NCBI GenBank assembly: GCA_024276575.1
Contig: JAJRWY010000131.1
Location: 1,268 to 65,267, forward strand
Length of the DNA: 64,000 nucleotides
DNA from: Candidatus Binatota bacterium
GTDB lineage: Bacteria > Desulfobacterota > Binatia > UBA1149 > CAITLU01
Reading direction: 5' to 3'
Shown piece by piece: positions 25,122 to 38,515 of this stretch. Positions within the stretch are counted from its first letter, which is position 1, and each line of letters opens with the position of its first letter. The position numbers were made by a program, and so were the translations under genes. Below the pieces are notes generated by a model. It ran no database searches, was not told the origin of the DNA, and saw only the letters and a program-made list of their open reading frames with translations.

Positions 25122-25210
25122 GGCCCGCACGTGACCGGTAAGGGCGCGGCACGTGACCGGAAAGGGGCCCGCACGTAGCCGGTAAGGGGGCGGCACGTGG
25201 TTGGCACGGA
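25122..25210. repeat. four tandem ~23-bp repeats with CACGTG/CACGTA cores
   Basis: Units: GGGCCCGCACGTGACCGGTAAGG / GCGCGGCACGTGACCGGAAAGGG / GCCCGCACGTAGCCGGTAAGGGG / GCGGCACGTGGTTGGCACGG. Confidence 0.7.
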
Positions 25211-27962: not shown

Positions 27963-29114
27963 ATGGCCTTCCCTTCTTCTTCATCCCACGTCCCCAACAC
28001 ATACTCATGGCGCGAGTTTTCCGGGTCCTTGGGAGATCTCGGCTTGTTCGTCCCACTGTGCGTGGCGATGGCCGCAGTCGGCGGTTTGGATTTCGGAACC
28101 ATATTGGTCGCCGCCGGTTTGATGAATATAGCCACTGGTTTGTTTTTCCGGCAGCCGATCCCCGTGCAGCCCATGAAAGCCATTGCGGTAGTGGTCATCA
28201 CCGAAGGGCTCAGCAAGGGTGAAGTCATGGCTTCGGGCCTGGTGATGGGATTGCTTATGTTGCTGCTAGCAGTCACCGGCTCGATAGAGCTGATTGATCG
28301 CAGAATCCCTGCCGCGCTGGTACGCGGCATTCAGCTTGGCGTAGGCCTCAAACTGGCGGCTAAGGGGGTAGAGTGGGTCTCCGAGTTGCCGCTGCTTGGA
28401 TGGGACAGCGTCCTTGTCGCCTTGCTCGCGGGACTGGCGCTCTTGCTTTTCATCGCCCGCGAGAAGCCCTGGCTACCCTTGATCTTCTCGGCAGGCTTTG
28501 TCGTCATCTATTTTGCCCATCCCGAAGCGTATGCGGGTATCGATTGGTCTTTTTCGTTGTCTCTTCCCTCCTGGCCCGCACTCCCCGACTGGGAAGCAGG
28601 TTTCTTGCGTGGTGCCCTGCCGCAGTTGCCTCTGACTTTGCTCAACTCGGTAGTCGCCGTTTGCGCGCTTAGCTCCGCCTACTTCCCCGGGCGTGGGATA
28701 AGGCCGCGCGAGATGGCTATCAGCGTAGCCCTGATGAATCTGTTGTGCTGCCCCTTCGGAGCCGTTCCAATGTGCCACGGTTCGGGCGGTTTGGCCGCGC
28801 AGTACCGCTTCGGTTCGCGCAGTGGCGGTAGTGTAGTGATGCTGGGGATCGCGAAGACCGTGGTCGGATTGTGTTTCGGAGGAGCGCTTCTCGGCTTGCT
28901 CGGCGGCTATCCTAAAGCGATCTTGGGGCCTATGTTGGTTTTTGCCGGCGTGGAGCTTGCCCGCGCTTGTGCCGACCTTGCCGGCGACAAGCGTGCCCTT
29001 CCGGTGCTACTTCTGACCGCAGCGGCCATCGTGGGCAGCAACACTTTCATCGGCTTCATGGTCGGTGCGGGTTATTACTTACTCTCTTCGCAGCATGAAC
29101 GGCGTACGCAGTAG
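27963..29114 (+). CDS. MOT1-like putative molybdate/sulfate transporter
   Basis: WREFSGSLGDLGLFVPL motif; a polytopic membrane protein; start taken at the internal Met. Confidence 0.5.
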   Translation: MAFPSSSSHVPNTYSWREFSGSLGDLGLFVPLCVAMAAVGGLDFGTILVAAGLMNIATGLFFRQPIPVQPMKAIAVVVITEGLSKGEVMASGLVMGLLMLLLAVTGSIELIDRRIPAALVRGIQLGVGLKLAAKGVEWVSELPLLGWDSVLVALLAGLALLLFIAREKPWLPLIFSAGFVVIYFAHPEAYAGIDWSFSLSLPSWPALPDWEAGFLRGALPQLPLTLLNSVVAVCALSSAYFPGRGIRPREMAISVALMNLLCCPFGAVPMCHGSGGLAAQYRFGSRSGGSVVMLGIAKTVVGLCFGGALLGLLGGYPKAILGPMLVFAGVELARACADLAGDKRALPVLLLTAAAIVGSNTFIGFMVGAGYYLLSSQHERRTQ

Positions 29115-29189
29115 GCAGCATGAACGGCGTACTCGGTAGGCAGCATGAACGGCGTACGCGGTAGGCAGCATGAAGGGTGCATGCGGTAG
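29090..29189. repeat. 4 x 25-bp tandem repeat (GCAGCATGAACGGCGTACGCAGTAG) spanning the transporter stop codon
   Basis: Unit 1 encodes the last residues and the TAG stop of the transporter; three more copies follow. Confidence 0.75.
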
Positions 29190-30082: not shown

Positions 30083-30159
30083 GCGCCAGTAGCTCAGTTG
30101 GATAGAGCATCGGCCTTCTAAGCCGGTGGTCGCAGGTTCGAGTCCTGCCTGGCGCGCCA
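30083..30159 (+). tRNA. tRNA-Arg (anticodon TCT)
   Basis: Acceptor GCGCCAG/CTGGCGC, D-arm AGCTCAGTTGGATAGAGC, anticodon loop CTTCTAA, T-loop GGTTCGAGTCC, and an encoded CCA. Confidence 0.85.
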
Positions 30160-30561
30160 AATTCAGGCAAGGTCTCGCGGAGGCTAGCTTTTCTCGCAAA
30201 CAGTGCGAACTCGAAGCGCTGTGTCAGCGAGACCAAATAGCCCTCATTTCTGCGCTCGTTAGCGGTCTCGCTCCGGTGTGTTTCGGCGCGCCGGTTGGGG
30301 CCTGTGTCGAACTGCACTTTGACCGTTTGGTCCCTCTTTGCGGCGCCGCGGATGGCGGATGGTTGTGGGAGCGTTGTGGCGGCGCGTTTGGGGGTTATGC
30401 CCCGTCTCAGGAAATGTTCGCATCTCCCGAGGCGGGGCTTCTTTTTTTCGGGGATACCCCGTTCCCCGGCGGTGGGCAGCCGGCAGAGTCCCCTCCTTTC
30501 TTTGCTCCTGTGGGGCAATCCCATGGGGCCCACCGATTCTTTCCTGACTCGGAGGTATCTC

Positions 30562-30750
30562 ATGAAGGTCATAATCAATGTTTCTACGGGCAACTCCGAC
30601 TGGCCAGCTCTAAAACGCGAGCTCGAGTTCGACGGCGAGATGAGCGATCAAGAGTGCAAGGCCATCGCGGACTCTTTCGCCGTCGCAGTGAAGGCGAAGG
30701 TCTACGAGCTGCTCGGCGGCAAGCCCGATCTACCCGACGAAGCTGCATAA
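30562..30750 (+). CDS. small hypothetical protein (62 aa)
   Basis: GGAGG RBS then ATG; MKVIINVSTGNSDWPALKRELEFDGEMSDQECKAIADSF ... Confidence 0.35.
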   Translation: MKVIINVSTGNSDWPALKRELEFDGEMSDQECKAIADSFAVAVKAKVYELLGGKPDLPDEAA

Positions 30751-30893
30751 CTTCTCCTCCCGCGGTGACTGTCCCCCCCGTACGTCACCGACGGGACACG
30801 GCCCAGGCAAGGGTGGCGACCCGATCCACGACCGTGCAACTGACCGCCTGTGAAAGCCTGATAGCGGGCGGTCACCAATTCTTGGGGGCTCCA

Positions 30894-30983
30894 TGAAAGT
30901 GTACATCTGCTTGACCGGGCTTCTTCTGATCATTGCCGGCGCTCTGTATTACCTCGGCGCGATCTCGATGAGGGAAGAGTGAT
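30894..30983 (+). CDS. small single-TM peptide (29 aa)
   Basis: MKVYICLTGLLLIIAGALYYLGAISMREE; its stop overlaps the next small ORF's start. Confidence 0.3.
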
Positions 30984-31101
30984 GGCGAACCCGTTCTTCC
31001 ATGTACTCGTTTATCCGCCGTGGTGGGCGGGTTGGATCCTGCCGGTGCTTCTGGGGCCGGTGATGCTGGTCACTCTCATCTACAGGGGGTATCGGCCATG
31101 A
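30982..31101 (+). CDS. small single-TM peptide (39 aa)
   Basis: MANPFFHVLVYPPWWAGWILPVLLGPVMLVTLIYRGYRP; ATGA overlap with the next gene. Confidence 0.3.
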   Translation: MANPFFHVLVYPPWWAGWILPVLLGPVMLVTLIYRGYRP

Positions 31102-31454
31102 GACACATCGATTTTGTCCGGTGCTGTCCGTGCTGGGTGTGCGGCAAGGTTTCTTCTGATCGTCAGCCCACCCACGCCGATCATCGTCCTACTCGTGGAT
31201 CCGGCCAGTCGCGAGACGACCATACCTGGCCGCTGTGTGCCGACCACCACATCGGACCGCAGGGGATCCACAGCTTGGGCGAAGACACTTTCCAGGAGCG
31301 CTACGGCGTCGGCTACGTGACGGCGATCTACTACCTGATCAGCGTCTACCAGGTGGCGTGGGTGTCCGAGGTCAAGGATCGCGACAAGGCGCGCGAGATC
31401 GGATACCGCGCGGTCAGCCTCGTGCGTGAGTCGGCTTGGAGGGAGGCGGCATGA
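31098..31454 (+). CDS. putative HNH-like nuclease (DUF968-like CxxC...HH motif protein)
   Basis: CPCWVCGK ... THADHRPTRGSG ... PLCADHH. Start taken at MRHIDF, coupled via ATGA. Confidence 0.4.
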   Translation: MRHIDFVRCCPCWVCGKVSSDRQPTHADHRPTRGSGQSRDDHTWPLCADHHIGPQGIHSLGEDTFQERYGVGYVTAIYYLISVYQVAWVSEVKDRDKAREIGYRAVSLVRESAWREAA

Positions 31455-31777
31455 GAGCGAGTCGTCCCTACTACGGTCGTGACCAGGATCTACAGCCTGA
31501 GCTGTTCGCTCCCCACAACCACACGGACACGAGCAAGGCCGCGGCCAAGTACATCGCCATCACATCCCAGACCAAGCGGGAGCGCATTTACCGGCTGCTC
31601 TGCGAGCTCGGGATCGAGGGGGCAACAAACGAAGAGATGTCGCGCGCGCTCGGCATGCCGATTCAGACGGTGTGCGGGCGGGTAGCGGAGCTACGGGAAG
31701 AAAAACGGGTGGTTGATTCCGGCCGGCGTCGTCCGGGCGCGTCTGGAGTCAACGCGAAAGTATGGAGGGCCACATGA
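31451..31777 (+). CDS. winged-helix DNA-binding protein
   Basis: RERIYRLLCELGIEGATNEEMSRALGMPIQTVCGRVAELREEKRV is wHTH-like; ATGA overlap. Confidence 0.4.
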   Translation: MRASRPYYGRDQDLQPELFAPHNHTDTSKAAAKYIAITSQTKRERIYRLLCELGIEGATNEEMSRALGMPIQTVCGRVAELREEKRVVDSGRRRPGASGVNAKVWRAT

Positions 31778-32184
31778 GCGAACTACTAGATACGGTTCTT
31801 GAGCGCATTTACGACGATAACAGCCGCCGACGTGACGTCACCATGGCGCCAGAGCGGATGCTGCAACTCGCGATCCTCGAACAGGCGATCGAGGACTATG
31901 CGTATCTGAAATTCCGTCGTTTCGGCTACACGACCGGTCGCTCATATCGCGATCTGAGTGACGTTGAAACGTGGATCGAGGCGGACGGCCCCAATGACAA
32001 TCCGATGAGCCAAGCTTGCCCGGAGATGGGCACATTCGTCGGGATTTGCGAGAGCCTGGGCATCAACGCCGACAGTTTGCGCGAGAAGATCCGCGCGCGA
32101 ACCACCTTCGGCCGACGCCGCAACCGCCTCGCGAGTACTGGTCGGGTCCATAAGATCGTGCCGCTGGAGCCGAGGACTGCGTGA
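31774..32184 (+). CDS. hypothetical phage protein
   Basis: 136-aa ORF in the coupled early operon. Confidence 0.35.
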   Translation: MSELLDTVLERIYDDNSRRRDVTMAPERMLQLAILEQAIEDYAYLKFRRFGYTTGRSYRDLSDVETWIEADGPNDNPMSQACPEMGTFVGICESLGINADSLREKIRARTTFGRRRNRLASTGRVHKIVPLEPRTA

Positions 32185-32347
32185 GTCCTATTCGCGGTGC
32201 GCTCGCGCGCGAACTCGCCAAGAAGGCGGGGATCCGCGTGTCGGGAAAGCCCAAGACGGTGACTGAAAAGACGATCGAAGCGGAGAAGAAGAGACGGGCT
32301 GACGAGCTCGAAAGGAAGTGGTTGGAGAGGGGGAAGAGAGATGTTTG
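32180..32347 (+). CDS. small basic/acidic hypothetical protein (GTG start; not in ORF track)
   Basis: GTG overlaps the previous stop (GTGA). It encodes about 55 aa (VSPIRGALARELAKKAGIRVSGKPKT ...), and its stop overlaps the next ATG. Confidence 0.25.
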
Positions 32348-32610
32348 AGCAACAGACGCTGCCTTTAAAACGTCGCCGAGAAGTGCCGGCATTCATGGTT
32401 CTACGGCCGATCGGCCGCTTCCGTGGGGAAGATGACGTCTACGAGCGAAAAGACGCTTACGGCGCCTGGAAATACGCGCGCGTGGACTGCGGGACGCACG
32501 TCGAGTGGTACGCCTGGTCTAAAGGCCAGTGGGCCTACATGCCGGGCAAGGACTTAGATGGCCAGGTGGTGGTTGCGGATGCGGTGGAGGAGCTGGAGCG
32601 ATGTCACTGA
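32341..32610 (+). CDS. hypothetical phage protein
   Basis: 89 aa, coupled to its neighbours. Confidence 0.35.
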   Translation: MFEQQTLPLKRRREVPAFMVLRPIGRFRGEDDVYERKDAYGAWKYARVDCGTHVEWYAWSKGQWAYMPGKDLDGQVVVADAVEELERCH

Positions 32611-33380
32611 AAGCGTACGCATGGGCTTGGGAACAACACGACATCAAGGGGACAGACAAGCTGGTGCTTCTTGCTTTGGCGGATAGTGCCGACAACACGG
32701 GCAAATGTTGGCCCAAGCAGGGCACTATCGCGCTCAAGGCCGGCGTTCATCGGGTGACCGTTTCGAAGACGATCGCGCGCCTGGAAGAGGGTGGAGAGTC
32801 GGCGCCGGTGCGCTCTGTCCAGACCCGTAAGACGAACGGCGACTTTGGTGGAAAGGAGTACTATCTCAACCTTTCACGTGTAGCGCAGGACTACACGCCG
32901 CGTGTAGCGGAGGACTACACGCGCGAGCAACCCACGGCTACACGCGCGTGTAGCGCAGGACTACATGCGCGTGTAGCGGACGGCTACAGCAAAGAACCGT
33001 CATATGAACCGTCATTAGAACCGTCAGAGGGAACCAGCCCCCCTTACACCCCCCCTCGAACCGATTTGGAACTCCGGGAGGGAGTCAAAGCCGTCAATCG
33101 GGCAGCCGGCCGTCACGGGAAGGCGGCGATCCCATACCAGCAACTCGGAGCCGAGCGCTTACACCGAATGTGCCGCGGAGATCTCGACGAGCTCGGCCTA
33201 GTCGTCAAATGGCTGGTCGAGCGGGAAATGCCTACCTGGCCGGGAGGCTCGAAGTTGAGTCTTGCGCTGCTGGCTCGCAACTACGAGACCTACTGCGCCA
33301 ACGCGTATGCCGATAGCGACGGCGCCGGCGGGACGTGGGCCGATACGGTGGCGGCTCTTACTGGGGGCGGCCATGCCTGA
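32601..33380 (+). CDS. phage replication initiation protein (HTH_36/O-like N-terminal domain)
   Basis: MSLKAYAWAWEQHDIKGTDKLVLLALADSADNTGKCWPKQGTIALKAGVHRVTVSKTIARLEEGG; iteron-like repeats lie inside the gene. Confidence 0.55.
   Translation: MSLKAYAWAWEQHDIKGTDKLVLLALADSADNTGKCWPKQGTIALKAGVHRVTVSKTIARLEEGGESAPVRSVQTRKTNGDFGGKEYYLNLSRVAQDYTPRVAEDYTREQPTATRACSAGLHARVADGYSKEPSYEPSLEPSEGTSPPYTPPRTDLELREGVKAVNRAAGRHGKAAIPYQQLGAERLHRMCRGDLDELGLVVKWLVEREMPTWPGGSKLSLALLARNYETYCANAYADSDGAGGTWADTVAALTGGGHA
32878..32990. repeat. iteron-like repeat array (candidate phage origin) inside the replication gene
   Basis: GTGTAGCG occurs four times. GACTACA and GGCTACA repeats and the palindrome CTACACGCGCGTGTAG are also present. 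This mirrors lambda ori within O. Confidence 0.5.
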
Positions 33381-33840
33381 TTCTACGAAGGATGTCTTTC
33401 TGCGTGAGTTCGAGCGGCTGGCCAAGCGGTATCGCGTAAACCTGGACGACATCGTCTACCGCGAGCAGGTGGCGATGCTGCTAGACGACTTCGGGTCAAG
33501 CGGCCCGGAAACGATTTCGCTGGCGTTCGAGCTGCTACGCCGGCAAGGCCACGAGTTCTTTCCCAACTATGGACAGATCGCCGCGGCGATCTCGCGCGCG
33601 CGGCAGGTCATCGCTGATCGCCGGGCCGCGGATGAGCGCCGGCGGTGGTCCCGGCCTCAAGCCCGGATAAGCGGCGCCTTGGGCAAAGCGGTCAGCTACG
33701 CGATCCGAAATCAGCGGCTCTTATCCAAGCCGGAAATGTCGCATCAGATCGAGAAGATCCTTTCCGGAGACGAGCCGGGAGTGGATCCAGGGCAAGCGAG
33801 TGCAGACGTCTGCACTGCCGACGGAGGAACCCAGATATGA
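33374..33840 (+). CDS. hypothetical phage protein (replication-module)
   Basis: 155 aa; ATGA-coupled. Confidence 0.35.
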
Positions 33841-35351
33841 TCGAAGCTGCAGAATTACCTGAAGAGTCGGCCACTCGAGTGGACATGATTCCGCTGTGTG
33901 CGATCGCGGAATCGCCGAGCAACCCTCGAAAGACGTTCGGAGATCTCAGCGAGCTGACCGAGAGCGTGAAGGCCTGCGGAGTACTTCAACCGATCTTGGT
34001 AAGGCCCGACGCTGACGGCTACGAACTCGTCTTTGGCCACCGCCGTGTTCGAGCCGCGCGCGCGGCCGGTCTCGAACAAGTGCCGGCGATGATTCGAGAT
34101 CTCGACGACACTCAAGTCCTCGAGGCCCAAATCATCGAGAACTGCCACCGCGAGGACATCCACCCGCTGGAAGAGGCCGACAGCTACCGGATCTTGCATG
34201 AGGAGCACGGCTACGAGGTCGAAGAGCTTGCGGCGAAAGTCGGGCAATCAAAAAGCTACATCTACGCCAGGATGAAGTTGTGTGCTTTGGGTGAAGAAGG
34301 GCGCAAGGCCTTCATTGAGGGGAAACTCACTGCGTCGACAGCGCTGCTTGTGGCGCGGATTCCGAACACAGAGCTGCAAGTCGAGGCAACCAACGACATT
34401 ACCAGGGAGACCGAGTGGAGTTCTCCTATGTCGTATCGCTACGCCAAGGAGTATGTTCGCAGGACCTACATGCTGCAGCTCAAAGGGGCGCCGTTCTCGA
34501 GGAAAGCCGAAGATCTTGGCGCCGGCGCTTGTACTACTTGCCCTAAGAGGACCGGCAACCAGAGCGAATTGTTCGAGGACGTTGGTAGTGCAGACGTCTG
34601 CACGGATCCGCCCTGCTACCAGCGCAAGGTCGACGCGACGTGGCAAAAGACGGCTGAGCGATACCGCAAGAAGGGTATAACCGTTATCGACGACCCCAAG
34701 GAGATCAAGAAGATCTTCCCCTACGGTGACAATTTGGCTTGGAACTCGGGTTACGTCGATCTTCATGACCGATGTGAGGACGATCCCGAAAACCGGCAAT
34801 ATGCCAAGCTGCTTGGAAAACGGGCCATCGGAGACATGGTGCTGGCGCGCGATCCAGACGGCAAAGCACGCCAGCTCTTCCCCAACGACAAGCTCGTTGA
34901 GGCGCTCAAGGCGGTGGGCCACGATTTCTCGACAAGCAGCTCTGACGAGGATGGTCCCGAGGACCCACATGAAACCATAGATAGCGAGTTCGAAGCTCGG
35001 CTCTGCAATCGTGTAATGGAGCGCCTAGTAGCGGCCGTTGAAGCGAGAGAGCCCGACGAGGCATTCTGGCGCGCGTGTCTGGCTGATCACGACATGATCG
35101 ATTGCGTGATCGACCGACGCCAGTGGAATAGTGACGAATATCCGGGTCCAGAAGAGATCGATGCTCGATTAGCCGAGATAACGGTTCCGCAACTGCGAGG
35201 CCTTGTGTTCGAGACCTGCGTTACCGGGCTTGTGCTGCCGGTTTGGCGCGAAGAGCAACGTCAGAAAACCTCTGGGTTCTGTGCGCGTCTTGGACTCGAT
35301 TACGAGCAGATTAGGGAAGAGCTGCGCCAAGAAGAGGCGGATACGGCATGA
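33837..35351 (+). CDS. ParB-like nuclease domain protein
   Basis: ParB N-terminal domain (VLQPILVRPDADGYELVFGHRRVRAARAAG ... IIENCHRED) with a C-terminal Cys cluster (CTTCPKRTG ... CTDPPC). Confidence 0.6.
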   Translation: MIEAAELPEESATRVDMIPLCAIAESPSNPRKTFGDLSELTESVKACGVLQPILVRPDADGYELVFGHRRVRAARAAGLEQVPAMIRDLDDTQVLEAQIIENCHREDIHPLEEADSYRILHEEHGYEVEELAAKVGQSKSYIYARMKLCALGEEGRKAFIEGKLTASTALLVARIPNTELQVEATNDITRETEWSSPMSYRYAKEYVRRTYMLQLKGAPFSRKAEDLGAGACTTCPKRTGNQSELFEDVGSADVCTDPPCYQRKVDATWQKTAERYRKKGITVIDDPKEIKKIFPYGDNLAWNSGYVDLHDRCEDDPENRQYAKLLGKRAIGDMVLARDPDGKARQLFPNDKLVEALKAVGHDFSTSSSDEDGPEDPHETIDSEFEARLCNRVMERLVAAVEAREPDEAFWRACLADHDMIDCVIDRRQWNSDEYPGPEEIDARLAEITVPQLRGLVFETCVTGLVLPVWREEQRQKTSGFCARLGLDYEQIREELRQEEADTA

Positions 35352-35899
35352 CGAAGATTGAGCGGACTGACGAGACGTGCCCGAAGTGTGGCGGGAGCGG
35401 CGAGATCGGCGGCGACTGTGGGGACTTTGGCAGTTATATGTCGCCGCAAAACCAGCCGACGCCTTGCCCCACATGTTTTCCACGCAACGAACCAAAGAAC
35501 CGGTCTCAGTTGCGGGCGAAGGAAGAATACCGTTCGCACTTCATTTCGTATTTGCATGCTGGCCGGGCTGACAGGTCTCTGCAGGCTGAGGACAGCCACG
35601 ATAAGCGGCTACCAGGGCGCATCACTGGTCAGCATTGGTGGCAGGTGATGTGCGAGCGATTGAGCACGGGTGAGGACGAAGCGGCCGTGCTTAATGACTA
35701 CGGACTTAGGCGTGGGTCCGGGAACCGTCATGACATGGGAGTACGGTGCGGGACCATCGGAGAGTGCATTGCTGTGGTTGAGGCTGACAAGACGTTGGGT
35801 GATCTGACCAAGGACCGGCTTGTGAAGCGACTAGAGGCGCTGACCTACGATGTGTACTGGTCGGCGGGTCCTTCCAGCGGAAGTGACATACGCAGTTGA
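35348..35899 (+). CDS. zinc-ribbon hypothetical protein
   Basis: CPKCGGSG ... CPTCF motifs. Confidence 0.35.
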   Translation: MTKIERTDETCPKCGGSGEIGGDCGDFGSYMSPQNQPTPCPTCFPRNEPKNRSQLRAKEEYRSHFISYLHAGRADRSLQAEDSHDKRLPGRITGQHWWQVMCERLSTGEDEAAVLNDYGLRRGSGNRHDMGVRCGTIGECIAVVEADKTLGDLTKDRLVKRLEALTYDVYWSAGPSSGSDIRS

Positions 35900-36014
35900 A
35901 GGGGGGCCCGCTAGGTCAGCCATTTTAGCTCTGGAAAAATCACTAAATTAAATTTCAGTTACTTCGAGGTGACGATGGAGGCTGTGAACGCGGTGCGGAT
36001 GGCGGAAGAGGTGG
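35900..36014 (+). promoter_or_regulatory. AT-rich intergenic region, candidate late promoter
   Basis: TTTTAGCTCTGGAAAAATCACTAAATTAAATTTCAGTTACTTCGAGG is the only strongly AT-rich stretch in the module. Confidence 0.3.
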
Positions 36015-36530
36015 ATGGGGACCAGCAAGAAAAAGGCTACGAAGAAAGCTTCGACGAAGAAATCGACGAAGAAGAAAGTCGCCAAGAAGAAAGTCGCCAA
36101 GAAGAAGGTCACCAAGAAGAAGGTCACCAAGAAGAAGGTTGCTGCGAAAGCGGCTACGCCCGCGAAGCGAGGCCGAAAGCCCGGCCAAGTTGATACCGAA
36201 CCGCGCAAGCTGCGCGAGGATCCGGTACAGCCGTCCCTGGATCTTACCTACGAAACAGATCGCAAGCGTAAGCTCAAAGCTGAGGCGGACCTCAAAGAGG
36301 CCCAGGCCGCCAAAGCGAAGCTTGAGCGTGATGCAACGCTCGGTCGGCTGATCTCGTTGGAAGACCATGAGGCCGCGCTGGTCGAGCGCGTGCGCGTGTT
36401 GAAGAAGGCGCTACTGCGTCAGGCTCAGCGCTTGGGGCCCATGGTTGCCGGGCTAGATCCACGTGAAGCCACGGCACTGATTCAGCGTGAGAACGAAGGG
36501 CTCATCCGGGAGTTCGCGGGGCAGTTGTAG
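36015..36530 (+). CDS. Lys-rich DNA-binding protein, candidate terminase small subunit
   Basis: N-terminal (A/T)KKKV repeats encoded by a 15-bp tandem DNA repeat; a C-terminal helical domain; sits immediately upstream of the terminase large subunit. Confidence 0.35.
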   Translation: MGTSKKKATKKASTKKSTKKKVAKKKVAKKKVTKKKVTKKKVAAKAATPAKRGRKPGQVDTEPRKLREDPVQPSLDLTYETDRKRKLKAEADLKEAQAAKAKLERDATLGRLISLEDHEAALVERVRVLKKALLRQAQRLGPMVAGLDPREATALIQRENEGLIREFAGQL

Positions 36531-36532
36531 CG

Positions 36533-38515
36533 ATGGCCGGAAGTGCACTAGCGCGAGTCTGGACCGAGCCCGAGCGCGATGCGTGGAAGCTGCCAGGAGA
36601 GATCACTCCGAGTGAGTGGGCCGATGAGAACCGCCGGCTGAATCCGAAGTTCTCAAATGAAAGCGGCCGATGGCGGACGGCTCGCACTCCATATCTGCGT
36701 GAGATCATGGATACCCTGATCGACCCTCTTGTCGAGCAGGTCACGTTCATGAAGGCGACTCAGATCGGCGCCACGGAGGCAGTGCAGAACCTCGTGGGCT
36801 ACACGATCGATCAAATGCCGTCCCCCCTGCTGTACGTGATGCCCACCGAAGAAGATGCCAAGGGTATCGCCGGCGAGCGTCTGAAGTCACTGGTCAACGA
36901 GACGCCGGCGGTGGCGGCACACAAAACCGATCGATCCAACGATCTACGCGGGTCCCTGTGGATGCTCGACGAAATGGTCATGCGGCTGGCGTGGCCGACG
37001 GCCTCAAAGCTTGCGTCGATGCCGGTGCGGATTGTCATCATCGACGAGGTCGACAAGATCGAGAAGTTCACGGGGAAAGAGGCCAACCCGCTTGAGCTCG
37101 CCCGCGACCGCACCGACACCTTCAAATCTACCCGGAAGCTCTACGTGGTCTCGAGCCCGACCAACGAAGACGGCCATGTGCATCTGGAGTTCGAGGATTC
37201 CGACAAGCGGCGCTACTGGGTGCCTTGCCCGCACTGCCACGGCTATCAGCCGCTTGTGTTCGGCGGCAAGGGCGGTGGTGGCGGGATCAAGTGGCCGGTA
37301 GACGAGCGGGATCCGGAACGCATCAAGGCGCTCGACCTGGCTTACTACGAGTGTGATCTGTGCGCCGGCGAGATCCGCGATCACTACAAACCGTTGATGC
37401 TCGAGGCCGGCGTATGGTGCCCGGAAGGCTGCGAAGTCGGGCCCGGCGGGAAGATCAAGGGGGATATTCCGCAGACGACCCACCGCGGCTATCACCTGTC
37501 GGCACTGTACTCGCCGTGGAAGGATTTCTCCGAGCTCGTTGCCGAGTGGCTGAAGGCCAAGTCGCGCCCGGACAAGCTGCAGAACTTCCTAAACTCGCGG
37601 CTTGCTCAGGTTTGGCGTGAAAAGCTAGACTCGACGAAGACCTCAGAAGTCGAACACCTGGAGCTGCCTTACAGAAAGGCCGGTGAGGATCCGATTGTGC
37701 CGGCCGATGCCATTGTGATCACGGCTGCGATCGACGTGCAGAAAGATCATGTCTGGGTGGAGATCCGTGCGTGGGGCGTCGGTGAGACGTCCTGGCTTGT
37801 TCAGTGGCTGCGCCTACCGCGTTACTTGCATCCCTTTGAGGGCGAGACCGAGCACGACCAGTGGCGCGACGTTGTGAGATACGTGATCCGTTCCGAGTTT
37901 GAGCGCGAAGACGGCGGACCGGCGATGACTCCGCGGCTCATCGGAATCGACTCCGGCCACTTTACAGACGAGGTCTATGCGTTCAGCCGGCGCTTTTCTC
38001 CGTTACTGATTCCTTTGAAGGGCAGCAATCAACCGATGAGAGGGGCTCACTACCGGGCCAGCCACATAGAGAAGGATCGCCGCGGCCGAGTTCGCCAGCG
38101 TGGCATTGTGCTGTGGTGGGTGGATCCCTTCTACTACAAGCCGAAGCTGCACCGGATGATGCAGACCGAGCCGGGAATGCCGGGTCGCTGGCACGTCTAC
38201 CAGGACGTCGAGCAGGAATTCAAGGACCAGGTGACGGCCGAGGAGCTCGTCATCGAGCGCAATCGCCGAACAGGCGCCGCGAAGACAGTGTGGCGGCTCA
38301 AGGAAGGCCGCAACGCGAACCATCTCGGAGACTGTGCGGTCTACAACCTCGCTCTGGCCGACATTGTGGGCGTGGGGATGCTGACCGAGGCTCATCTGGA
38401 GCAGGTTCGCCGGGTACCAACGAGTGGCCGCTCGACCGAACCGGAGGAATCGCGCTCTCGGCGTGGCGGTAGCGGCTGGATCAATCGTGGCGGCGGGAAG
38501 TGGCTGGATCGGTGA
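36533..38515 (+). CDS. terminase large subunit (gpA-like)
   Basis: 660 aa; Walker-B-like IIDEVDK; central CPHCHGYQ ... CDLCAGEI Cys cluster. Confidence 0.8.
   Translation: MAGSALARVWTEPERDAWKLPGEITPSEWADENRRLNPKFSNESGRWRTARTPYLREIMDTLIDPLVEQVTFMKATQIGATEAVQNLVGYTIDQMPSPLLYVMPTEEDAKGIAGERLKSLVNETPAVAAHKTDRSNDLRGSLWMLDEMVMRLAWPTASKLASMPVRIVIIDEVDKIEKFTGKEANPLELARDRTDTFKSTRKLYVVSSPTNEDGHVHLEFEDSDKRRYWVPCPHCHGYQPLVFGGKGGGGGIKWPVDERDPERIKALDLAYYECDLCAGEIRDHYKPLMLEAGVWCPEGCEVGPGGKIKGDIPQTTHRGYHLSALYSPWKDFSELVAEWLKAKSRPDKLQNFLNSRLAQVWREKLDSTKTSEVEHLELPYRKAGEDPIVPADAIVITAAIDVQKDHVWVEIRAWGVGETSWLVQWLRLPRYLHPFEGETEHDQWRDVVRYVIRSEFEREDGGPAMTPRLIGIDSGHFTDEVYAFSRRFSPLLIPLKGSNQPMRGAHYRASHIEKDRRGRVRQRGIVLWWVDPFYYKPKLHRMMQTEPGMPGRWHVYQDVEQEFKDQVTAEELVIERNRRTGAAKTVWRLKEGRNANHLGDCAVYNLALADIVGVGMLTEAHLEQVRRVPTSGRSTEPEESRSRRGGSGWINRGGGKWLDR

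Follow-up and report, generated by a model that had tools for sequence, protein, structure and literature searches.

The locus considered here raises the question of why a gene for a phage replication protein carries a tandem array of dyad-symmetric repeats in the middle of its coding sequence. The gene lies in a stretch of 64,000 nucleotides (nt) of contig JAJRWY010000131.1 from a Candidatus Binatota bacterium (assembly GCA_024276575.1, positions 1,268 to 65,267); this whole stretch is called the window below, and coordinates refer to it. An earlier sequence-only reading had proposed an arrangement like that of the O gene of phage lambda, in which the origin of replication, made of iterons, is located inside the initiator gene. 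This arrangement is supported by the matches of the protein to O-like initiators, by the anatomy of the lambda origin (ori-lambda) as seen with the same tools, and by the layout of the genes of the family. With a probability of about 0.75, the array is considered to be the origin from which a lambda-like temperate siphovirus replicates, located inside the phage's own initiator gene.

Structure of the Repeat Array

The array consists of five tandem units (32877–32991; Tandem Repeats Finder (TRF) score 139–154) with start-to-start spacings of 24, 23, 23, and 23 nt, and it occupies nt 277–391 of the 780-nt host gene, i.e., 0.355–0.50 of the gene length. Each unit, with the consensus CGTGTAGCGCAGGACTACACGCG, is built around the inverted repeat GTGTAG-N7-CTACAC. 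Of the ten half-sites expected, nine are recognizable; they alternate in orientation and are placed approximately one helical turn apart, their starts being separated by 13 and 10–11 nt. Taken as 22-nt units, they are placed at 32877–32898, 32901–32922, 32924–32945, 32947–32968, and 32970–32991. Identity among units 1, 2, and 4 is 95–100%, that of unit 5 to the reference is 73%, and in unit 3 only the right half is retained.

The repeat array claimed in the sequence-only reading proved to be real, with two corrections: it is made of five tandem dyad units rather than four, and it is accompanied by three copies of a 12-nt repeat, nnnGAACCGTCA, that had not been flagged. The four GTGTAGCG octamers reported within the initiator gene were found at 32878, 32902, 32948, and 32971 (five copies in the whole window versus 1.55 expected). 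The GACTACA and GGCTACA elements were likewise present, as was the palindrome CTACACGCGCGTGTAG, which is located at 32938–32953 and represents the place where units 3 and 4 meet. When the 18-mer GTGTAGCGSASGRCTACA was searched for with up to three mismatches, the four places in the array were its only matches in 64 kb; 0.29 matches were expected, and four were reached in none of 100 shuffles.

The five units are read in frames 0, 0, 2, 1, and 0, the period of 23 nt not being a multiple of three, and are translated as RVAQDYT, RVAEDYT, (E)QPTAT, ACSAGLH, and RVADGYS, respectively. The first two of these peptide repeats had been noticed before; the last one is an addition. All three frames being used to read one and the same unit, the repeat array is constrained as DNA and not as protein.

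The dyads might alternatively function as hairpins, either in the rep mRNA (translation or transcription pausing) or in single-stranded DNA (ssDNA), as a single-strand origin. The top strand of the region 32870–33035 does fold at −41.5 kcal/mol (z = −4.15 versus shuffles), but such hairpin potential is automatic for dyad-symmetric protein sites. The Rfam scan detected two tRNAs only and no RNA family match at the array. In addition, the spacing of approximately two helical turns and the co-variation of the repeats with the DNA-binding domain, described below, point to duplex recognition, which leaves hairpins an exceedingly improbable explanation.

Second Repeat Element

The three 12-nt copies of nnnGAACCGTCA are located at 32992–33027, directly after the iterons. 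The motif GAACCGTCA occurs in the window four times (0.70 expected), and three of these copies lie within this short segment with a spacing of 12 nt. A fourth, lone copy was detected at 35722–35730, within a 183-aa gene of unknown function downstream of a gene encoding a ParB-like protein.

A local GC minimum was found over the 12-mers, where 60-nt windows go down to 50–52% GC versus 61.5% for the gene. The 45 nt following the array have a GC content of 46.7% versus 62.0% in the rest of the initiator gene, and the GC skew is strongly negative across the region 33000–33100, which also includes a C-tract direct repeat (Table 1).

Initiator Gene and Protein

The host gene had been described in the sequence-only reading as encoding a helix-turn-helix-containing replication protein, and database comparison agrees with this. 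The Pfam family HTH_36 (PF13730) matches aa 14–63 with 47.3 bits (gathering cut-off 25, E = 1.8e-12), and the matches to PHROG 1032, 391, and 8540 are labelled "replication initiation (O-like)", these labels being functional names only. The conserved HTH_36 motifs LVLLALAD and CWP were also found in the protein.

According to the AlphaFold model, which was obtained from a shallow alignment and is reliable for aa 1–90 only, this N-terminal part contains helices 3–11, 17–29, 40–47, and 51–62 and a beta hairpin at 70–89, with a predicted local distance difference test (pLDDT) score of 75–93. The sequence of aa 93–154, which is coded by the iterons, the 12-mers, and the Pro-rich C-tract, shows no secondary structure, and pLDDT is below 50 from aa 100 on; the iterons, then, code for a segment of the initiator that is predicted to be unstructured. 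From aa 155 onwards, the model is helical with low confidence, this C-terminal part being unreliable, and the model as a whole contains a single winged-helix domain. Because the array codes for an unstructured linker between two protein domains, a DNA-level signal can be tolerated at this place. The best Foldseek matches were MarR-type and other winged-helix proteins, all of them weak (best E = 8e-3, none with E <= 1e-3).

The whole initiator protein is nearly an orphan. Among 5.8e9 proteins, only four distant N-terminal homologues were found in addition to the identical protein P0001, which is encoded on a 75.8-kb NCBI contig, and a single-sequence search of viral and genome contigs revealed no close relatives. 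The C-terminal domain, presumed to be a helicase- or partner-recruiting module, has no Pfam, NCBIfam, or PDB match and no meaningful homologue among 1.84e9 representative proteins. The sole matches to aa 145–259 among these representatives, P0006 and P0007, contain perfect long tandem repeats and look like translated repetitive DNA rather than real relatives.

Two known classes of initiators were considered for the protein and rejected. For the lambda O family (Pfam Phage_rep_O), no Pfam match was found, and BLASTP against lambda O gave a best E of 2.5. As for the Rep_3/RepA-type class of iteron plasmids, there is no Rep_3 match, the model contains a single winged-helix domain, and the array is intragenic.

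Survey of HTH_36 O-like Genes

The survey covered 85 genes picked by similarity of the N-terminal domain (80 loci from a profile-based scan of viral contigs). An array was counted when its period was 15–26 nt and its TRF score was at least 50, and the counts are defined by these thresholds. The sequence-only reading had tied its proposal to the presence of repeats in homologous rep genes; an array was found in 69 of the 85 genes, at the same relative position and with a lineage-specific sequence. Its median position across the family is 0.35–0.46 of the gene length. The density of arrays within these genes is 1.12/kb versus 0.010/kb in 202 kb of flanks, i.e., more than 100-fold enrichment.

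The modal period is 22–23 nt: a period of 22 nt was found in 33 genes, 23 nt in 11, and 15 nt in another 11. Most periods (49/68) are not divisible by three. In 61% of the family consensus units, versus 9% of shuffled ones, there are perfect inverted arms of 5 nt or more. The 45 nt following the array have a mean GC content of 39.5% versus 54.4% in the rest of the gene, and the value is lower in 56 of 57 non-redundant genes.

The arrays are followed by a second motif. In the family genes, AACCNTCA was found in 119 sense and 6 antisense copies, at a median position of nt 382, and its density in the flanks is 0.074/kb. The spacings of 10–14 nt between copies include 11 nt (20 cases), 13 nt (17 cases), and 12 nt (14 cases). 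Copies of the motif are found in each of the three reading frames (88, 12, and 19), and the "EPSxEPS" peptides of HTH_36 proteins are for this reason a by-product of a DNA motif; the "NHQ" and "TI" peptides are the same element read in the other two frames. Genes without exact AACCNTCA carry a variant form, namely, two copies of ATACATCAAT followed by AACCACCAAG, at the same position. In relatives of the window gene, the second element is AGAACC(A/G)TCAAT or ATACATCAAT, the hosts ranging from approximately 40% to approximately 68% GC.

The gene from the window matches the layout of the family, with its array at 0.355–0.50 followed by three copies of GAACCGTCA at 12-nt spacing. In each of the distant N-terminal homologues for which enough DNA was available, this place is occupied by a different repeat peculiar to the gene, with GAA-CCN-TCA-type repeats after it. 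The layout of array and second motif was also found in the "O" gene of the Shiga toxin (Stx) phage phi24B, as well as in replicons of Tardiphaga and Azospirillum.

Link between the Iterons and the N-Terminal Domain

Comparison of the arrangement with that in related phages, suggested in the earlier reading, showed that the array sequence changes together with the N-terminal domain. In mosaic pairs of genes, where the N-terminal parts are approximately 80–99% identical and the C-terminal parts are unrelated (<30%), the iteron is the same (L012 with L015, L017, and L035; L019 with L046; L039 with L050, L073, and L086). Nucleotide identity in such pairs is 0.9–1.0 from the N-terminal region through the iterons to the second motif and falls to approximately 0.4 right after the last copy of the motif. 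The C-terminal domain is, in these relatives, a separately exchangeable module.

Where the N-terminal coding DNA is only 0.6–0.8 identical, the array is 0.9–1.0 identical, and the constraint on it is therefore stronger than that on the neighbouring coding sequence. This bears on the possibility that the repeat is a protein-level or neutral feature, a low-complexity linker grown by replication slippage and having no function as DNA. The predicted disorder of the array-coded segment would suit such a linker, and other tandem arrays of 20–25 nt do occur elsewhere in the window (0.11/kb). Slippage is nevertheless highly improbable in view of the better conservation of the arrays relative to adjacent coding DNA, the reading of the units in three frames, the family periods that are mostly not multiples of three, the enrichment over the flanks, and the dyad symmetry, which is meaningless at the protein level.

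Two relatives, L099 and L117, are HTH_36 genes with an array in the same position, a different GC content, and an N-terminal identity to the window protein of only 34%. The 19-bp core GTGTAG-CCCAGGA-CTACAC is kept in all three genes, and CTACA is invariant in 14 of 14 units. L099 contains a half-degenerate unit resembling unit 3 of the window, and it shares with the window protein the sequence HRVTVS in the segment aligned with the second helix of the HTH (helix 51–62 of the model). In L099 (2907–3368), the reading frame ends immediately downstream of the array, and the product is 153 aa long; unless this is a contig error, the module of N-terminal domain and ori would be a gene on its own.

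Mosaic co-inheritance, the sharp module boundary, and the retention of the core at 34% identity point to the initiator's own N-terminal domain as the candidate that binds the iterons. The same co-inheritance speaks for binding specificity and not for firing, and it would be expected as well if the repeats were initiator binding sites for control only (autorepression, copy-number "handcuffing", or exclusion of related phages), with the true start of replication elsewhere. Plasmid iterons are known to serve both initiation and control (PMC3832669). This alternative is nonetheless unlikely: neither a further array nor any other iteron-like site was found in the prophage part of the window, a site acting as an operator alone should be located at a promoter and not 280 nt inside a gene, and the array is always coupled to an AT-rich, strand-asymmetric element, as in ori-lambda.

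Searches with the DNA pattern itself gave a different set of loci. A strict pattern of two iterons had no match in viral or genome contigs. A relaxed half-site pattern detected 63 loci in metagenomes, and the HTH_36 domain was present in L099 and L117 only; the other 61 loci contain similar half-sites in arrays of other contexts. In L132, a similar array lies on the other strand with no spanning open reading frame (ORF). Eleven metagenome arrays (L091, L115, L121, L123, and L152; L113, L135, and L148; L093, L116, and L150) contain 5–10 copies with periods of 22, 23, or 27 nt and have the TGTAG-N7-CTACA geometry. They have no adjoining HTH_36 gene, are situated mostly outside long ORFs, and fall into at least three sequence families. 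Such arrays could be origins of other replicons.

Prophage Context

The element is a lambda-like siphovirus prophage adjoining a tRNA-Arg gene, in a genome of approximately 60–61% GC. To its left are tRNA-Pro and tRNA-Arg and then ordinary cellular genes. To the right of the initiator gene, a 155-aa gene and the gene of the 504-aa ParB-like protein are followed by lambda-type structural and packaging genes, namely, those of the large terminase (TerL), portal, head protease, major capsid, tape-measure, and J-like tail proteins. A small winged-helix protein is encoded upstream of the initiator (31436–31777). From its position, the 155-aa product is a possible replication partner. Approximately 850 nt separate tRNA-Arg from the first recognizable phage gene (30160–31020), and this interval contains no gene with a family match. 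No duplicate of the attachment site (att), i.e., no second copy of the tRNA 3' end, was detected elsewhere in the 64-kb window; therefore, either the prophage is a remnant or its other end is situated past the 64 kb covered.

Table 1. Features of the initiator gene and its neighbourhood in the window.
Feature	Position	Strand	Basis or sequence
Replication-initiator gene, 259 aa, HTH_36/"O-like"	32601..33380	+	ORF, Pfam, PHROG
N-terminal winged-helix DNA-binding domain, coding region (aa 1–90)	32601..32870	+	AlphaFold model
Iteron 1	32877..32899	.	CGTGTAGCGCAGGACTACACGC, dyad GTGTAG-N7-CTACAC
Iteron 2	32901..32923	.	CGTGTAGCGGAGGACTACACGC
Iteron 3, left half degenerate	32924..32946	.	CGAGCAACCCACGGCTACACGC
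Iteron 4	32947..32969	.	CGTGTAGCGCAGGACTACATGC
Iteron 5	32970..32991	.	CGTGTAGCGGACGGCTACAGCA
Three 12-nt repeats	32992..33027	+	AAGAACCGTCAT / ATGAACCGTCAT / TAGAACCGTCAG; local form of the family-wide AACCNTCA element; proposed unwinding/helicase-entry element
C-tract direct repeat	33035..33056	+	CAGCCCCCCT / CACCCCCCCT; Pro-rich coding, 3' edge of the unstructured segment; may or may not be part of the origin
C-terminal helical domain, coding region (aa 155–259)	33063..33377	+	Orphan sequence, low-confidence predicted helices
Downstream gene, 155 aa, no family match	33373..33840	+	Overlaps the rep stop (ATGCCTGA)
ParB-like protein, 504 aa, ParB_N + HTH_ParB	33837-35351		Between the replication gene and the packaging genes

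The ParB-like protein shows a sub-threshold match to the ParB of PRTRC systems (130 bits versus a cut-off of 279), and no ParA-like gene was found among the scanned neighbours of its gene. The array could be viewed as a centromere or binding site for this protein, encoded 450 nt downstream with ParB_N and HTH_ParB domains, or for the small winged-helix protein, the more so as sites of the ParB type are palindromes that may occur in arrays. Against this, a ParB-like gene was found by tblastn in the fetched flanks of none of 87 related array-bearing loci, and the sequence of the array varies together with the N-terminal HTH_36 domain. A role of the array as a centromere is therefore very unlikely.

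Three other tandem repeats were recorded in the window. On the host side of the prophage junction, four copies of a 25-nt repeat, GCAGCATGAACGGCGTACGCGGTAG (90% matches), extend at 29090–29189 over the 3' end of a molybdate-transporter-like gene and the interval that separates it from tRNA-Pro. In the host part, 3.3 copies of a 22-nt repeat, GCACGTGACCGGTAAGGGGGCG, lie at 25127–25199, directly upstream of an alpha/beta-hydrolase gene. The gap directly upstream of the gene for the large terminase contains approximately five copies of a 15-nt repeat (36041–36139), whose + strand translation is a charged E/Q-rich repeat, EESRQEESRQEEGHQEEGHQ, with no gene assigned to it.

Proposed Mechanism and Its Significance

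The initiation of replication at this site would proceed in three steps. Dimers of the winged-helix (HTH_36) domain would bind the five dyad 23-bp iterons and form a nucleoprotein complex similar to the O-some. Stress imposed by this complex would then open the adjacent GC-poor, A+C-rich stretch, in which three GAACCGTCA copies are spaced at approximately one helical turn. Finally, the C-terminal domain, possibly together with the product of the neighbouring 155-aa gene, would recruit the host replicative helicase. We rate the chance that the 12-mers serve as an unwinding or loading element as somewhat short of even. Still more tentatively, the second element, represented here by three copies of GAACCGTCA, might be an undescribed family-wide element of HTH_36 origins that marks the site of unwinding and helicase loading and is perhaps read as ssDNA by a conserved part of the initiator. 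It would in that case both yield the EPSxEPS, NHQ, and TI peptides and mark the boundary of module recombination.

Several observations weigh against the assignment of the array as an origin. The GC dip is modest in absolute terms (approximately 44–50% GC), and easy melting is not obvious in a genome of 61% GC. With regard to host-factor input, there are no DnaA boxes near the array, and their count in the window is at the level of chance. With regard to transcriptional activation, a consensus scan of 30100–36600 for promoters and terminators revealed no sigma-70-type promoter and was uninformative. No integrase gene was found in 30160–31020, neither an integrase nor the right-hand end of the prophage is present in the window, iteron 3 is half-degenerate, and the prophage may be defective. 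For HTH_36 plasmids of Paracoccus, the predicted oriV is located upstream of rep and contains two direct repeats (PMC3832669). Binding or origin firing for this HTH_36 family is not described in the searchable open-access literature.

For lambdoid phages, the location of the origin within the initiator gene is textbook knowledge and would not surprise a specialist. As for the family-wide GAACCRTCA element, it may be undescribed: neither an intragenic bipartite origin with conserved AACCNTCA in the HTH_36 family nor AACCNTCA as the boundary between the "N-terminal domain + ori" and C-terminal modules was found described in the open-access literature.

Assignment of the array as the origin would place the origin of the prophage within approximately 150 bp and explain the odd repetitive peptide of the initiator. 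HTH_36 "O-like" proteins are among the commonest annotated initiators of temperate phages, including Shiga toxin phages such as phi24B, and of some plasmids. If the origin can indeed be read from the gene by its dyad iterons and AACCNTCA, then origins and incompatibility or specificity groups would be predictable from sequence alone. The pairs of initiator and iteron would represent a natural data set for DNA recognition by winged-helix domains, and the conserved second element would provide a testable handle on the opening of these origins.

Comparison with Known Replication Systems

The HTH_36 Rep proteins of the Paracoccus plasmids pAES7, pMARC3, and pMOS2 are treated as iteron-type replication initiators (PMC3832669). 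The window initiator shares the Pfam domain with them and differs in that its array is inside the gene, whereas the oriV predicted for the plasmids is upstream of rep.

The iteron plasmids RK2, F, and R6K, as well as E. coli oriC with its 13-mers, have bipartite origins that combine double-strand initiator sites with short repeats of the melting region placed approximately one helical turn apart, and some of their initiators contact one of the two strands in the melted region. In contrast to the window array, their origins are intergenic, and the sequences of the motifs are unrelated. Their initiators belong to the Rep_3, TrfA, and DnaA families, and the window initiator has no such Pfam match.

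The "O" genes of the Stx phages phi24B, Min27, and Stx2a_F403 encode an N-terminal domain of the same protein family and have the same internal layout. The matches of the phi24B group were obtained in the tblastn search with the relative L012, and the window Rep itself matched three records of Stx2-converting phages. In phi24B, three copies of GGTGGGGCAGGAGCTGCCC with a period of approximately 24 nt are located at nt 292–355 of the gene and are followed by GAACC-type repeats. The iteron sequence and the C-terminal domain are different from those of the window, and the next gene encodes a helicase-type "P" protein. The phi24B record contains no annotated ori, and no paper describing one was found.

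In lambdoid phages, the origin lies in the central part of the O gene and consists of O-binding iterons and an AT-rich tract needed for unwinding (PMC7466680). Analysis of the lambda genome (NC_001416) with the tools applied to the window located the four annotated ori iterons at nt 349–435 of the 900-nt O gene, with spacings of 20, 24, and 23 nt; the lambda iteron is the dyad TCCCTC-N5-GAGGGA, and an A-rich tract follows the array. In ori-lambda (as well as in the Stx phages 933W and P27) and in the window, the origin or its candidate lies mid-gene between the parts coding for the DNA-binding N-terminal and the C-terminal regions of the initiator. Both contain 4–6 direct repeats that are dyads with 6-bp arms spaced at 20–24 nt, both have on the 3' side an AT-rich tract with an A/C-rich strand, and in both the N-terminal part and the ori act as one specificity module. 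In layout and position, the window array nearly coincides with the annotated ori-lambda. The differences are also evident. There is no detectable sequence similarity to lambda O, the window protein belonging to Pfam HTH_36 and not to Phage_rep_O. The dyad spacer is 5 nt in lambda versus 7 nt in the window, lambda lacks the conserved AACCNTCA repeat of the AT-rich part of the window family, and in a genome of 61% GC "AT-rich" means only approximately 45–50% GC. The window array thus resembles ori-lambda in architecture and proposed mechanism and not in protein family.

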